Assembly: GCA_036867785.1 (NCBI GenBank)
Contig: CP145425.1
Span: 1 to 64,000 of the forward strand
Length of the DNA: 64,000 nt
Direction of reading: 5' to 3'
From: Plasmodiophora brassicae
Lineage: Eukaryota
This document shows, in pieces, positions 27,801 to 34,955 of the stretch. Each line of letters starts with the position of its first letter. The stretch's first letter is position 1. The notes under the pieces were generated by a model, which saw only the letters and a program-made list of their open reading frames with translations, ran no database searches and was not told where the DNA came from. The position numbers and the translations under genes are program-made.

Positions 27801-29580
27801 CCTGGTTCGCTCTTACTGGATTGCGTACAGCACAAGGAGTTCCGCAAGCACCTGAAGAGCGCGGTCACCCAGCCGTCCATGATCATCACGTTGCAAAAGT
27901 CGCAGGCCGCCCATGTCGTCTGCACGCGGTGCTGCCCCACCGAAACGATGTCGGCGCACATCTTCGGGGCGAAATCGAAATGGCACAGGTCGCAGTCGAC
28001 TCACGTCGAACGCATCACGTTCAACGATGTCCCAACCCAAGGCGTCCCTGTCGTCCAGGTAGCACGTAATCGATTCCGTCAGGCCCGCGAAACGTCTGAC
28101 GTTTGCCGTTGCCCAGGATTGCACTGGCCTGGGGCCAAAGATCCTGACCTCGATTATGCACGGGTACCGGGGTGAGCCCGCATTGAAGATCACGTCTGTG
28201 GACGACCCGAATCGGGTCATCGAAGCTCGCGCCACTGTCTGTCGAACGTCGTGGGAGCTCTGCTCGGACCTGTCCGAGTCCGGGTCCAGCGCCAGCGCCA
28301 ACGTCCCGCGTCATTCGCTTCTGGAAGGGCTCGGCATCCTGAACCTGAAACGGCACCCTGTCTTTGCCGTCGCGAGCGGCGTCATGTTCTTCGGGAGCAA
28401 CCAGAAGTCGATCCGCGTCGAGGGCGTCACCGTCCTGCCTCAGGTGATCACTGCAGCCGTCGATTGAATCGTTGCGTCCCGACTCCAATATGGTGTGCAG
28501 GGCGAGACCTGGTTGCACCTGGCGCTGCTGCTGATTGGCATTGATACGAAGTCCTGGCTGGGCGCACGCGTGCAGCAGCCGGCACGACAAGCGGCCATGC
28601 GCTTGCATGACCGCCTAGCGCCCGCGATGCGAGGCCTGGACACGACCGACGCCGACCTGCCTTACGACATCTTCTCGTTCTTCAACGACAGCACCGATCC
28701 CATGGCTCGGGACGCGGTCACTGATAATCCCGCCGAACCGATCCCTCAACCGACCAGACCCGTCGTTCACGTCCCGACCGAGTTCATGGGCGACCAGCGC
28801 GGCCCGGAGGACACGAACGACCTCGACATCACGGACGTGTCCGTCCTGACCCGGCTGCGCGACATGGCCAAGGGCAAGGGGTGTGGTCACAAATCCCACA
28901 AGGACGGCGGGAACAAGCTCAAGTACGCTTGCCTGCGATGTGGCGCCCGGTCGACATGGAAGAAATGCCTGGTGAGCTGGACGGCGCCCCTGTACTGTGT
29001 ACCCGCCCGGTCTAACCGCCCGCATTGCCAGATCCACATGTCCACAAAGTCGTCGTGCAAGGCGTTCATCGCGGCGGTCATCCAGGACATCGAGAAGGAG
29101 CTGGCGGATGCGAACGCACCCGCCCCGGCTCCTGACGTGTCGTCGGCCACCGAGGTGTACCAGTGCCTGGCCTGCGGCCGCCAGGCGCCATCCTGGGACA
29201 CGTGCCTGGAGCACATTCGCGGTTCGGCGGCCTGTTTCCAGGCGATCGTCCAACTGCAATTCCAGGAGCAGGACGAGTGGACGGTGCCGTTGGCAGCGCG
29301 GATCGGCCAGGAGTGCCTGCGATCCAGCCGGGACCCGTCCGCGTTCCAGTGCCCTGGATGTGCGAAACTGATGCCCTGGGATGACCTGCAGGACCATATC
29401 GAGTACGACCCGTCGTGCCGAAACGTAGGCGTGTCCTGTGCGATTCGCCGGCAACCCATTGTTGTTCATACCCGATCGTCCCTTGTGCAGGTCTGCGAGG
29501 AGTCGTTCGACCCGGACCCGTCTGACTGGATGAGCGCGACCCTGGTCGTCGATGGCCTGCGCGAGCGCTGCCGGATCTAA
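24837..29580 (+). CDS. DExH-box (DEAH/RHA family) RNA helicase with C-terminal zinc fingers, multi-exon
   Basis: LPI, GETGCGKS, QPRRIAA, DEVHER, MSAT, LIFVSG, ATNAAESSLTLPDV, Q|RAGRTGR, HA2-like region. An alternative upstream ATG lies at 24714. Confidence 0.9.
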
Positions 29581-30106
29581 TCATGCATGGTCCAGATCGT
29601 CGTACCTACCATGGTCGAGAAGTACATCATACATCTGCGATCAAACTCGTTGCGAACGTCCCACGCGTCGGTAATCCCATTTGGTGATTCGTCACAGGGG
29701 GCGTACCTACTAGACGATGATGTCCTGGACGGGCCTGGCCGCGGTCCAGTGAGGCGATTTCACCGACCATAATGTGACATCGAGGGGTAGGAGGCCGTTC
29801 GTCTTCCTCATGGTGTTCTCCTGCTAGCTCTACGTCGTGGTGATCTTGCCGGGCGCGATACGTTGACGCAAATGTCTGTGAAGCAGCGGATACCGATGTG
29901 TGGACGCAGTCAGCAGGAGGCTCTTGTCGAGTCATCCAAGCAACAACGTCGAACAGATTCCTCGCTCAGGAACTGCCAGAACCGGATGCCCGTCTTGATG
30001 AAGGAAAACGTACACGATGCGACGCTCAATTCGCACATTACGCGTCGGCCGGATCCGTCGCAAGTCGCCCTAACGCCGGGCACTTTCATTCATGTTTGAC
30101 GACGAG

Positions 30107-33100
30107 TCAGAAGCAGATGCCGGTCCCACGGGACGTCGTCAGCAGGGTGTCCGAGGAGCGGTAGCGGTGCCAGATGAACAGCTTGACAGAAGCGAACGCG
30201 AGTAGAGCAGCACCAGCGATGATGCCAATGGTTAGGCCTGCGATCCCACCGGCCCCAATGCTGCCGCCGTCGACGCCCGCCGTTGCTCCAGCCGTTTCCA
30301 TGTGGGCGACTGCCCATTTCGCCTTGAATGTCTTGAGGAAGTCGGTTGTCTTCAAGGCTGCCACAACCGCTCCCAGAGCAACGCCCCTCAAAGCCCACGA
30401 CTTCTTGATGGCTTTCGGGGCGCCGCCATTGGCGGGAACCTTGTGCGGGCGGGATGCGTCATCACGATGGCGCGCGTACTGATAGACGCCGCCAGCCACA
30501 AGTAGACCGCCAACGACGACCTTGGCCAGAGTAGGCAGGGCGTCCCCTTTGGGCTTCGCCCAGGTGACGCCCAGGTGTTTCAAGCTCGTCTTGCGGTCAT
30601 CGGTGTAGACGAACGTGCCCATCTTCGGGTCCGTGTTTCGAAACACGCCCGCCGGGATCGCCTCCAGCTGCTTGCACTTGGAGAAATCTCTGTATCATCA
30701 CGTATCAGCCCTTCAACTGAAACGGTGGATCACGAATCCCCAGGACCTACACGATGTGCAGCTGTTTGCACTCGGTGAACGCATTCTCGTGGATCGTCGT
30801 CAGCGACGAGCCGTGCATGTCCAGGGATTTGAGATCCCCCAAGCTCTGGAAAGTCTTTTCGGCAATGTTGAACGGCTGTTTGACATTGGCCACCGTCTTC
30901 AAATGATCGTCAATGGCCAGCGTTTATCAAGGGAGACACCTAGGTCAGTAACGTACCAAACTTTGCAGGCGCGTTAACGTCGAAAACTGATCAAAGTCAA
31001 TTCGACTTATGCCGTCCAACGTCCTACACGCAATACCAAGTCAGTGCGGTCGGCACGCTCGAAGTGCTTCAAGGCAACGTTACAGAGATGCGAGATTCGG
31101 GAACGGCAGCAACTTCCGGTTGTTGCCGATCGGGGCCAATCGAAATGATGAGGACGAGGAGATTGACCTATAGGGCAGAAACGTCATGCTTGCGCGGCAG
31201 ATCTGTGCGTCAGACAAGGCTCACGTACAAAGATGTGACGGCGCCTCCGTGCACAGCCTTCGTTCTGTAGTAAACAACTTGGGGGCAGTTCCTGATTGTC
31301 CTATAGGAGGGTCGTTCTGATTCCGTGGCCACGAATCGATGCGGGGCACGCCCGAACTTACAAATGCTGTAGGGCGGGCATGGACGAAATGTCAATCGAG
31401 TCCGCCTGCAGGTCGACCAGTTCACTGATATCACCCAGTTAGGCGAGATACGCGCCGTGGTCCAACAAGGAGGTCAATGCTGACGTACAGAGTCGCGAGG
31501 CCAGAGAAATGCCTGTTGATCACATCTGTAGAGCAATCGGCCCTTCGAAGAATCAGCTTGTTTGCCCCGATCATGCCGTCGCCGACCAGTCCGACCCAAT
31601 CGACCATACCGCCGATGTCCCTTTGTTGCATAAACGAGTCAGAGCGGGTCTGGCGTACGGTCTGAACAGCAACCCATACAGCGTCCGTAACTTGGGCAGA
31701 CGAGCGATAGCGCTTCGAGGTACAACCAGGCGCGCGTCCTCAGGAACCTCGATCGTCCTGCAGTCGTAGTTAGTACCACGGCCGCCACTCAATATCCAGA
31801 ATCGGGAGAGCGACGAACAGGCTAGTCAGCTCTTCGGCACCGTAGAAATCAGACAAGGCGACCCAGTATATGTTGGCGAGGTCCTTCCGGCCGGCCCTTT
31901 CGATGACATCGCTCGTAATGGTCCTGTTGGCAATGTTAGCATAGGGCATCGTTGCAATGGGACCAGGGCGCGCCGCACACACATCGATTTGTCGGATCGG
32001 GCGTTCAGGTCTTGGATCATGGCATAGCTGACCAGGCAGCCATCTTGCAGATGTACCTCGGTGGGATAGTATCCGTCGCCACCCGACACAAGCTCGGTGT
32101 ACGACGCGAGGTCGGCCAGTGACGTCAGCGAAACTCGTGCAGCGATATCCACCAGCGCGCGTCGTTGCTCAGCCGACAATCGCTTGAGGTCGGTGCATAA
32201 ACCCGCGCGTGCACAAGTCCCTGTAGCATCGATCGTAGTCGGAGCAGACCCTTTGCCAGACCTGAGGACGGCGCTCTTGACCTTATCGGCCACAATGTCC
32301 AGACGATACGCCGTACTCCTTCCCAGTTCCTCTTCAGGCCTCCCGGTGGCAAACGACAGCACTTTCCCGAATACACTGGTTGCCGTAGACAGCAATCCGT
32401 TTCCATCAGCGTCGTCCGCAACCCACTCTTCAAAGTCGTCCTGTTCCGGGCACAGGACGTACGGGACAAAGCCATGCACGGCGGTCCTGGCGCGTATTCG
32501 TTGGTCGTGACCATAATGTACCACCCCGGCAGTGTGTTCGAATTCGCAGTAGCCATCGTCACCACCGTCGTCTTTCCTGTTCACCTGATCCCATAGGTCG
32601 AACGCGCTCCGGAAGGCGCTTGCGAATTGACCGTCTTTGCCGTTCAGCACCACGGCGAGGACCGTCCTCAGGCCACCTGCCGCGTGGGGGATTTCCCTGG
32701 CGACCCGACTGGCCTGGCACGGTGGCAGTAATGGTACCAGGCCATGGCTGCGGGTAACCCGCCAGGAAGTCGTAACAAGTTCGCCGTAGAACCGCGCGAA
32801 TATCGAGTTGCCCACCCTAATGCAACGCCGCTTAGCACGCTGCTGTGCAAATACGCATGGTGGGACCGTGTTACTTGGGAGCACCAAACGTGTACACCAT
32901 CGTGTCGTACTGACGGTGCTCTTTGATGGCCTTGAACGTGGCGGCGGACAATGTCGCTAATGCACCGCCCAGACCGTGGCCAGTGAAAAGGATGGTGCAG
33001 TCGGAGCGCGTCCGCATACGTTCCGCCAACAGCGAGTTCAGTCGGGTGCGGCGCGCAAACAGCTCGTACAGCTTCAGGAACCCCTTGTGAACGGTCATAC

Positions 33101-33571
33101 CCTTGTGGGTGTTGGTCCAGTGGGGATCCGCTGTTTTGAACGGCACCGATTGGTGGTCGAAGAGAACGTCGCCAGCCGGGCCATCGCCACTGAACGAAAC
33201 CACGACTGCGGCAAACAGGAAACATTAGGGCAGGCATGCATGTCGCGCATCAGGGCAGCATTACCGAGCTGCGGTGTCGAAGCCGCGGCGCTGAGCTGAA
33301 CCTCGCCTCTCGTCACGCCGATAAACGCTTGGTGACCGCCGGCTGTCAGCACTTGCACGTCCGTCAATGACTGTTCGAACGGCATCGACTGGGCAAAGAA
33401 ACTGCTCCACGACTTGATGCAGTCGACGTGCTTGGAGTGCGCCCCATATGCATACTTGAACGCGACCTTGCCGAACTCGTGGGAGTACGGGTGGCCGGTA
33501 ATTGGTGCACTCCAACAGCATAACGGTATCGCCCGTATCAAGAAGGCAATTGCTGTCACGCGAAGCATCAT
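30107..33571 (-). CDS. Signal peptide + inactive lipase class 3 + LRR array + TM (receptor-like protein), about 10 introns
   Basis: Signal peptide MMLRVTAIAFLIRAIPLCCWS; VHKGFL, FTGHGLGGALA, YTFGAPK|VGN. Spliced LRRs: LTSL|TIE, LPKLRTL|DIG, FSGLATL|EL, MPALQHL|TIRNCP, FPNLASL|TL, LTRLQSL|TV, LGDLKSLDMH. C-terminal TM GIAGLTIGIIAGAALLAFASV. Introns include 31758-31818, 31168-31228, 31024-31083, 30897-30956, 30690-30750. Confidence 0.8.
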
Positions 33572-34955
33572 CGGCAAGGTCTCTGCAGACCGGCGCGCCT
33601 TCTCCGCAAAAGACTTCGCCTGTGAAACGTTCTGATGTCAGTCAGGCTGGACCTGCACTGGGACGGCCAGCTGCTGACCGGTTCGCTCCCGCTCGGTTCG
33701 GTCGTTGACGCTGGTTCAGTTTCGACGTGTGGACAGGTGCGCGAGGCGCAGGTGATCCGTATGGCACGTGTGGCTCAGGCCGTAATTGGACCGTGCCACT
33801 GTACTACATTGGTGGCTGCATCCAGGACACCCAATTTAGCATCGGCAAGTCGTCGGGCGTCATAAATAGGCCGAGATATGCAGTTAAGGGCAAGGTTTGC
33901 GGCGCGTTATCGATCGTCAGCGAGGCTAATCGGCCTCTATTGGCGAAGCAATATTGTATTCAGGTCGGCGTGATCTGCCTGGCGACCAGATCGAGTCGCG
34001 CCGCACAATCCCAGTGCAAGCACGCGGCATGACTGGCGAGTATGCTAACCCTGGCGCACCAGGTGTCCAGGTCCACTGGGGTTGGAGCCGGTGGTTCGGA
34101 TCGCCCCGGGTGTGTGCCCATGCGTCATGTTGACGGGTCTGAGAAAACTAATTAACGTGGACCTGATCCTCCCAGGACATTTGCCCTCGCCTGCGCGGAG
34201 CCGACTGGGGTCGAAGCCCACGTTCGACGGTGATTCACGGCTAACGAGATTTGCCAGCCGATGCAAGTCGTCACTGGCAGTCATGTGTCAGCCGGGAGCC
34301 TCGTTCGATGTGGCCTGCGCACAGGCAGGCTGACATTGGGAGACCGAGACCATCTCTTTCCTGCTCTGCGTTGCGGGCTCCTCCGGGAGCAACATCAAAT
34401 TTCCACTGGCAAATTAAAGCACCAGTACCGGCAACGTGGCTTCGCCAGAGGGTGGCAACCCGCCCAGGCGCTATGCACGGGCAGACGCAGGAGCCCACAA
34501 TGCGAGATAACGACGGTTATCGGACGCCTTCATCGATCGCCAACGTCGATAGCCCGTAAGATGATGGTTCCAGGAGCCTGCGGATCGTATTCTGCTTGGA
34601 TTCGGCAATGTCCTGCGCGTACGTTTCACAGGCACGCCCCATGGAGAGAGGGCGCACGTTTCTGCAGATTGCGGGCAGGGATGCTGGCCAAGGTACCCTG
34701 CTCCAGCAGCCGGTGGATGGCGCCTTCTACCCGCCGCACCAGGGTGGTCCCACAGTGCCCGCGACAGCGACTGCTCGCCAATCCCCACCCACGGCACGGG
34801 CGGCAGTGGATTGGTCAGGCAGAGCTCGCCATGTGCTGTGCAACGCAGCCAGTCTCGATTCGTGTCGTGTCACGTCGCGACCGGGGCCATCGACGCGAGA
34901 GATGACGACGCTCTCGTGTTTATTTCAGTTGTAAGCGCTGCATCGATCGACCAGG

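Follow-up and report, generated by a model that had tools for sequence, protein, structure and literature searches.

The minus strand of a 64,000-nucleotide (nt) stretch of Plasmodiophora brassicae DNA (contig CP145425.1, positions 1 to 64,000; hereafter the window) carries, between positions 33571 and 30107, a gene that joins a lipase fold of the class-3 type to a leucine-rich repeat (LRR) array and to hydrophobic helices. A single transcript encodes all of these parts: a complete lipase fold in which the catalytic Ser and Asp are lost, LRRs in a periodic array, and a hydrophobic helix or helices at either end of the protein. We read the product, an expressed membrane protein of 933 amino acids (aa), as a non-catalytic adhesion or receptor-like surface protein that probably binds its target rather than cutting it, and put the probability of this reading at roughly 0.6.

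One transcript across twelve coding exons

Translating the minus strand of 33800-30000 in three frames, we could connect 12 coding exons through 11 GT-AG introns of 58-64 nt into one open frame of 2802 nt, with no internal stop. Most of the 11 introns have a CTAAC- or CTGAC-like branch site 10-25 nt upstream of the acceptor. The start codon (33571-33569) is the earliest ATG in the RNA-supported 5′ untranslated region (UTR), the spliced UTR (about 33808-33572) containing none. The window is eukaryotic, with a GC content of about 57-67%. Introns of about 60 nt in a compact gene context agree with the description of P. brassicae in the accessible text of PMC4471660, and so intron-rich and compact a eukaryote is consistent with a phytomyxid.

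Twenty of 24 sequencing runs listed, from nine studies, carry at least part of the stretch; none is recorded as RNA. We compared the assembled contigs of four of them (X1, X2, X9 and X16), each from a different study and each labelled 'RNA? (a guess)'. Because introns present in the genomic window are missing from these contigs, we take them to derive from complementary DNA. All 11 predicted coding introns appear as joints in all four runs, at the exact predicted bases once the +1/+2 ambiguity of the cut is applied, and the junctions read CT..AC on the plus strand, equivalent to GT..AG on the minus strand. A further joint in the 5′ UTR (33618/33678, cut +1) is present in three of the four. X16 record 2 (3162 nt) lacks all of the introns over a span from beyond 29900 to about 33746, and reaches 68 nt upstream of the UTR intron. 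X1 record 1 (8093 nt) covers the same span intron-free and runs on into neighbouring transcripts, so transcript ends were not taken from it. In X2 the gene is represented by two contigs (29965-32815 and 32931-33618), and the 3′ UTR is covered gap-free by X1, X2 and X16 (29900/29965-30106). At least two studies thus have the lipase, LRR and membrane exons together on a single assembled RNA.

An earlier, sequence-only reading of this locus had proposed that GT-AG introns of about 60 nt link the lipase open reading frames (ORFs) to an ORF bearing a transmembrane (TM) segment, all in one frame and on one transcript, and had named separate lipase and LRR transcripts as grounds for abandoning the idea. 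The gene model and the RNA junctions bear the proposal out, each element lying where that reading had placed it, with lipase, LRR and TM exons joined in single contigs (X16 record 2 and X1 record 1). Its description of the gene as hidden holds for the ORF track, from which small LRR exons are missing, and the track is the sense covered here. Every joint is a minus-strand intron, and no competing plus-strand gene is supported over the locus. Across 3.9 kb, none of the four runs has a substituted letter, an insertion or a deletion, at the level of assembled contigs, from which rare isoforms or rare variants could escape.

The 8093-nt X1 contig passes the 3′ end of the gene by 4772 nt and position 33800 by 142 nt, from which it follows that neighbouring transcripts overlap or closely abut, including that of a convergent plus-strand ORF (28468-29577). 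The stretch itself is present in runs under at least six coded organism labels, from nine studies, a distribution that would fit co-sequencing with various hosts.

A lipase fold without its serine and aspartate

Exon 2 matches Pfam Lipase_3 (PF01764) over profile positions 22-103 of 140, scoring 59.9 bits against a cut-off of 22 (E=3.3e-16), and so belongs to the family by the Pfam gathering score. The start of exon 3 continues the match weakly (profile positions 104-139, E=0.041). Searching the PDB with exon 2 by phmmer returned 14 distinct sequences at E<=0.01, the best being lipase chains such as 1dt3 and 1tib (E=1.4e-5). These two and 1lgy, which the search output names only 'LIPASE', we take to be the Thermomyces and Rhizopus lipases. 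The phmmer alignment sets FTGHGLGGALAT of the target against FTGHSLGGALAT of the solved lipases. At its elbow, GHGLG (aa 178-182) aligns with GHSLG of the solved lipases and of a canonical paralogous domain in the window, placing Gly180 (codon GGT) at the position of the nucleophilic Ser. The target thus shares the homologous alpha/beta-hydrolase fold with class-3 triacylglycerol lipases, near residue for residue over the elbow and helix, but differs from them in having Gly180 and Gly238 for Ser and Asp, and in its additional LRRs and membrane helices.

Gly238 (codon GGC) falls on the catalytic Asp column of three paralogous domains in a MAFFT alignment. An ungapped BLASTP comparison of the exon 3 start with the last exon of the paralogue keeps the same register, with SHGLV over NADMV (E=0.035, for a single comparison). 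The protein has neither the nucleophilic Ser of an active class-3 lipase nor the catalytic Asp expected after the strand that follows GAPxVGN. Since a Gly at the elbow leaves no nucleophile, the fold should be unable to hydrolyse esters by the canonical route, and the protein should not be filed as a lipase enzyme. Both substitutions, Ser to Gly in GHGLG and HGLVP at the usual Asp position, had been read from the letters at the outset and placed in a Lipase_3 domain. The first can be read directly and now aligns with solved lipases and the paralogue, the second sits on the Asp column in both alignments, and the domain assignment clears the Pfam cut-off. The Ser codon that the same reading had set against itself does not appear: the contigs of the four runs have no alternative letter at the Gly180 codon.

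Activity by other means, relying on a non-canonical nucleophile or on a residue that another part of the fold supplies, is highly improbable. It would draw on the retained Lipase_3 fold signature and on His307, His313 and His316, which lie near the expected catalytic His, but the elbow Gly has no side chain, the acid is likewise a Gly, and neither editing nor a variant is seen at these two Gly codons in the RNA contigs.

The paralogous domains lie in a neighbouring minus-strand gene, an 854-aa ORF with three tandem Lipase_3 stretches (Pfam E=6.1e-49), which is also what tblastn of the gene model against the window finds (E=1.4e-6 and 2.6e-4). Its third domain is canonical, having GHSLG at the elbow, NNADMV with the Asp, and a later 'DH'. 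The elbows of domains 1 and 2, GHGSG and GHGVD, have Gly for Ser, and both domains keep the Asp and 'DH' columns. In position, a predicted 64-nt intron of this gene (46065-46002) agrees to within 4 nt with intron 2 of the target. The neighbour therefore resembles the target in its paralogous Lipase_3 fold and in the Gly at the nucleophile (two of its three domains); unlike the target, it has no LRRs, TM helices or signal-like N-terminus in the ORF read. With two further Gly-nucleophile domains in this gene, dead lipase folds recur in the genome. The neighbour has a GC content at third codon positions (GC3) of 0.96, in a surrounding region of 74% GC.

Protein homologue searches with exons 2, 3 and 12 found none, a weak negative given libraries of prokaryote-style ORF calls rather than the organism's own spliced proteins. 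Among metagenome contigs, 159 pattern stretches matched and none was confirmed as a related locus. Undetected relatives and the loss of two of three catalytic residues are also what a transcribed but decaying gene might present, a former membrane-tethered lipase becoming a pseudogene. We consider such decay very unlikely: the 2802-nt frame stays open across 11 precise splices, the transcript is present and variant-free in four of four runs from four studies, and the motifs that define the fold are well preserved around the lost residues.

The repeat array and the predicted membrane segments

Exons 4-12 encode units of 21-28 aa that open with L-x-[LI]-x-[LIV] and have a later F/I-x-x-L; the array has about 10 LRRs, mostly one per exon, with two in some exons. 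Scanning the exons singly against Pfam gave LRR_8 (27.4 bits, cut-off 27) and LRR_5 (21.9 bits) on exon 11 only, because only exon 11 is long enough on its own. In place of a plain LxxLxL count we used a periodicity statistic. The longest chain of LxxLxL-like motifs at 20-29-aa spacing is seven, a length reached in 1 of 5000 shuffles, and the control region before the array (aa 23-505, 483 aa) has a chain of one. A Pfam match together with tandem LxxLxL units of 20-30 aa places the array among LRRs. Of the seven introns that separate exons 4 to 11, six are in phase 2 and split the first-Leu codon of a repeat, intron 10/11 being in phase 0; intron 11/12 is again in phase 2, within a Val codon. 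This phase pattern is the signature expected of an array that grew by exon duplication.

Signal and TM segments were called by Kyte-Doolittle hydropathy only (19-residue window, mean >1.6). Just three segments exceed the threshold: aa 1-19 (1.83), about 791-812 (1.78) and about 884-913 (2.25), the maximum over aa 30-780 being 1.19. A signal-like segment occupies aa 1-21, with small residues at -3/-1 before Ala22. Putative TM helix 1 (TM1; aa 791-812) stands about 25 aa past the last LRR, and the basic stretch next to it has a net charge of +4, consistent with an ectodomain that faces outwards. The basic loop that follows TM1, about 70 aa long, contains a weakly hydrophobic helix (aa 839-856, 1.25) and leads to a second long helix (aa 884-913) and a 20-aa tail. 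In this second helix Gly887, Gly891, Gly895 and Gly899 recur at i, i+4, a spacing that we take to be the 'glycine zipper' helix-packing motif. A low-confidence model of exon 12 (predicted local distance difference test score, pLDDT, 47.3) puts the helices at the same places.

Where an LRR receptor-like protein would have a single TM segment and a short tail, two segments pass the threshold here with about 70 aa between them; with two C-terminal helices, a simple single-pass receptor may not be the right description. The sequence-only reading had described an LRR array split over small exons in a secreted, membrane-anchored protein. The array is confirmed by the exon 11 LRR_8 match and the periodic chain of seven; of the rest, the signal-like N-terminus and the hydrophobic C-terminal helices stand as far as hydropathy goes, the anchor consisting of two strong helices rather than one. 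The predicted ectodomain (aa 23-793, 771 aa) contains no N-x-S/T sequon and 12 Cys.

About 190 aa after the lipase fold (about aa 330-515) match no Pfam family. Against solved structures exon 3 gave only a chance row (E=0.78), and its first 50 aa no match. Against 1.84 billion representatives it found five proteins at E<=0.001: its own ORF in the window (P0001, 329 aa, 100%) and four long, repetitive proteins whose matches span short stretches and which we read as artefacts of composition or repeats. In the ESM Atlas exon 3 reached a recognition of 1649, below 2300; the top matches there, unnamed bacterial clusters (0.91), are a lead only, as is a Lipase_3-fragment cluster at rank 10 (0.89).

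Were the membrane form a precursor, proteolysis could free the pseudo-lipase/LRR ectodomain to act on host components, at a distance from the parasite surface, as a shed or secreted effector. The signal-like N-terminus and the large ectodomain would suit this. So would the published secretome: the accessible text of PMC4471660 gives P. brassicae seven putatively secreted lipases and an LRR-enriched secretome, and that of PMC11278463 reports secreted Lipase_3 and LRR_8 proteins that changed defence-marker expression in N. benthamiana. The latter, a 633-aa Lipase_3 protein and three LRR_8 proteins of 308-355 aa, are nonetheless different and shorter and, in the text accessible, unlinked to this gene (PMC11278463); a lipase-LRR fusion is not described in the accessible parts of either paper. 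With two strong hydrophobic helices after the LRRs and no cleavage motif seen in the protein sequence, we regard a shed effector as unlikely.

Likewise improbable is an endomembrane regulator of lipid metabolism, a non-catalytic partner of active lipases on endoplasmic reticulum, vacuole or lipid-droplet-associated membranes. Dead and live Lipase_3 domains occur together in the neighbouring gene, which suggests joint working, and the accessible text of PMC4471660 and PMC11278463 gives lipases and lipid droplets a prominent place in P. brassicae. Set against this, no retention signal was seen in the protein sequence. An LRR ectodomain behind a signal sequence is, moreover, more typical of extracellular binding proteins.

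Elsewhere in the window, Pfam annotation of 67 long ORFs identifies genes usual for a eukaryote: HSP70, a Na/Ca exchanger, an HSA-domain protein, RhoGAP+PH, TPH, DUF924 and an HPPD-like dioxygenase. No SABATH methyltransferase, which would have set the window next to a published P. brassicae locus, is among the 67. The two ORFs that flank the gene match no Pfam family at E<=1e-5. The plus-strand one has a GC3 of 0.81 and several paired-Cys motifs, and the minus-strand one has many hydrophobic stretches. Coordinates are collected in Table 1.

Table 1. Positions of the gene's parts and of nearby ORFs in the window (minus-strand features are given in the direction of reading)
Feature	Position	Strand	Remarks
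5′ UTR	33746-33572	-	upstream limit approximate (end of contig X16)
5′ UTR intron	33678-33620	-	59 nt, GT-AG; spliced in three of four runs, X9 without cover there
Coding exon 1	33571-33265	-	aa 1-102; start codon, signal-like N-terminus, N-terminal lipase-fold strands
Signal-like segment	33571-33509	-	aa 1-21
Predicted ectodomain	33508-30473	-	aa 23-793
Coding exon 2	33205-32875	-	aa 103-213; lipase-fold core with elbow GHGLG; Pfam Lipase_3
Gly180 codon	32975-32973	-	GGT
Coding exon 3	32816-31983	-	aa 213-491; lipase-fold end with Gly238, then about 190 aa without assigned domain
Gly238 codon	32743-32741	-	GGC
Coding exons 4-11	31923-30751	-	aa 491-740; LRR array in exons of 63-146 nt
Coding exon 4	31923-31819	-	
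Coding exon 5	31757-31680	-	
Coding exon 6	31620-31489	-	
Coding exon 7	31424-31362	-	
Coding exon 8	31300-31229	-	
Coding exon 9	31167-31084	-	
Coding exon 10	31023-30957	-	
Coding exon 11	30896-30751	-	
Coding exon 12	30689-30107	-	aa 740-933; final LRR, TM helix 1, basic loop, glycine-zipper helix, tail
TM helix 1 (predicted)	30538-30473	-	aa 791-812
Second long helix (predicted)	30259-30170	-	aa 884-913
Stop codon	30109-30107	-	TGA; end of exon 12
3′ UTR, minimum extent	30106-29862	-	X16 record positions 1-38 lie beyond 29900
Flanking ORF	28468-29577	+	370 aa
Flanking ORF	36479-34959	-	507 aa
Triple-Lipase_3 gene	about 48600-45663	-	854-aa ORF

The case for a binding protein

In the favoured reading, that of a non-catalytic adhesion or receptor-like protein, the signal-like N-terminus and TM1 would leave both the pseudo-lipase and the LRR solenoid facing the cell exterior or the secretory lumen. 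The pseudo-lipase fold would serve as a binding module, offering either a lipid or acyl-chain pocket or a protein-docking surface, and the LRR array would provide a second binding surface. The glycine-zipper helix may promote oligomerisation or pair with TM1. Since neither a kinase nor another type of signalling domain is present, output of any kind would depend on a partner protein or on oligomerisation by way of the membrane helices. Should the organism be an intracellular parasite, the protein possibly faces the host. The sequence-only reading had suggested a surface lipid-binding sensor or effector of a probable plant parasite; the surface position and these roles stay putative, and a plant parasite is consistent with the data.

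A class-3 lipase-like domain acts as a non-enzymatic scaffold in EDS1, PAD4 and SAG101, members of a family reported from seed plants alone (accessible text of PMC8813719). EDS1 chains came up as weak phmmer matches (E ~3e-3), over the lipase-like part only and with no stretch passing alone. EDS1 keeps its S-D-H triad, is cytosolic/nuclear and carries a C-terminal EP helical domain; the target, in contrast, has a broken triad, no EP domain after the lipase-like domain by Pfam or solved-structure search, and LRRs and TM helices as its partner modules.

Cholinesterase-like adhesion molecules are membrane-bound and miss one or more triad residues, according to the accessible part of PMC9958613. 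Neuroligins, gliotactin and neurotactin share with the target a membrane-bound hydrolase-fold ectodomain with an incomplete triad, used for binding, but are animal members of the carboxyl/cholinesterase family without an LRR array. No Pfam family of that type is found on any exon, and we regard the likeness as analogous rather than homologous. Among LRR proteins, the receptor-like and BspA-type surface proteins have a signal sequence, extracellular LRRs, a TM segment and no kinase; the target resembles them in its signal-like N-terminus, its LRRs, its predicted TM1 and the absence of a kinase. The target differs from LRR receptor-like proteins in the pseudo-lipase before its LRRs, in its second, glycine-zipper helix and in having no recognised LRR capping motifs; we found no sequence relationship to any specific LRR receptor family.

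Several observations weigh against reading the gene as a non-catalytic surface protein. In the homologue searches described above, no orthologue was found that would show either the Gly residues or the architecture to be kept. The catalytic His column, the 'DH' of the paralogues, is a gap in the target, the three nearby His residues being unaligned. Seven other LRR exons (20-43 aa), scanned singly, have no Pfam match and that of exon 11 is only marginal, and the plain LxxLxL count is not significant (13 against 8.35 +/- 2.5, with 111 of 2000 shuffles reaching 13). Arg13 interrupts the hydrophobic core of the signal-like segment. The signal peptide and TM helices are predictions from hydropathy; the chain may cross the membrane either twice or three times, and TM1 and the second long helix (TM2) are each followed by basic residues. 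Single-sequence AlphaFold2 models had a pLDDT of 32.4 for exon 3 and 47.3 for exon 12, both unusable. Surface exposure, ligand binding and oligomerisation are all properties that we infer from the protein sequence.

Going further, the gene could be the founding case of a lineage-restricted receptor class, in which a lipase pocket without Ser and Asp sits on an LRR stalk where parasite and host meet, and a glycine-zipper module oligomerises on binding. We offer this as a tentative extension and give it a small but real chance. If true, the receptor would be a protist counterpart of neuroligin- or EDS1-type pseudo-hydrolase signalling, independently assembled, with a ligand such as a host lipid or acyl compound.

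We found no paper on a lipase-LRR-TM protein in the open full-text literature searched, and within that literature this is apparently the first membrane-anchored protein to combine an LRR array with a class-3 lipase that is catalytically dead. For annotation, the lesson is that LRR arrays split into exons of 63-146 nt escape ORF-based views in this genome. Pseudo-enzymes of the alpha/beta-hydrolase fold have repeatedly been turned into binding or signalling modules, as in neuroligins and EDS1, and the protein described here would add a third such case, independent of those two and from a protist. The clubroot-type system has few characterised surface molecules. Provided that the organism is the clubroot agent or one of its relatives, the protein would lie at the interface between parasite and host cytoplasm and would be a candidate for host recognition or lipid sensing.

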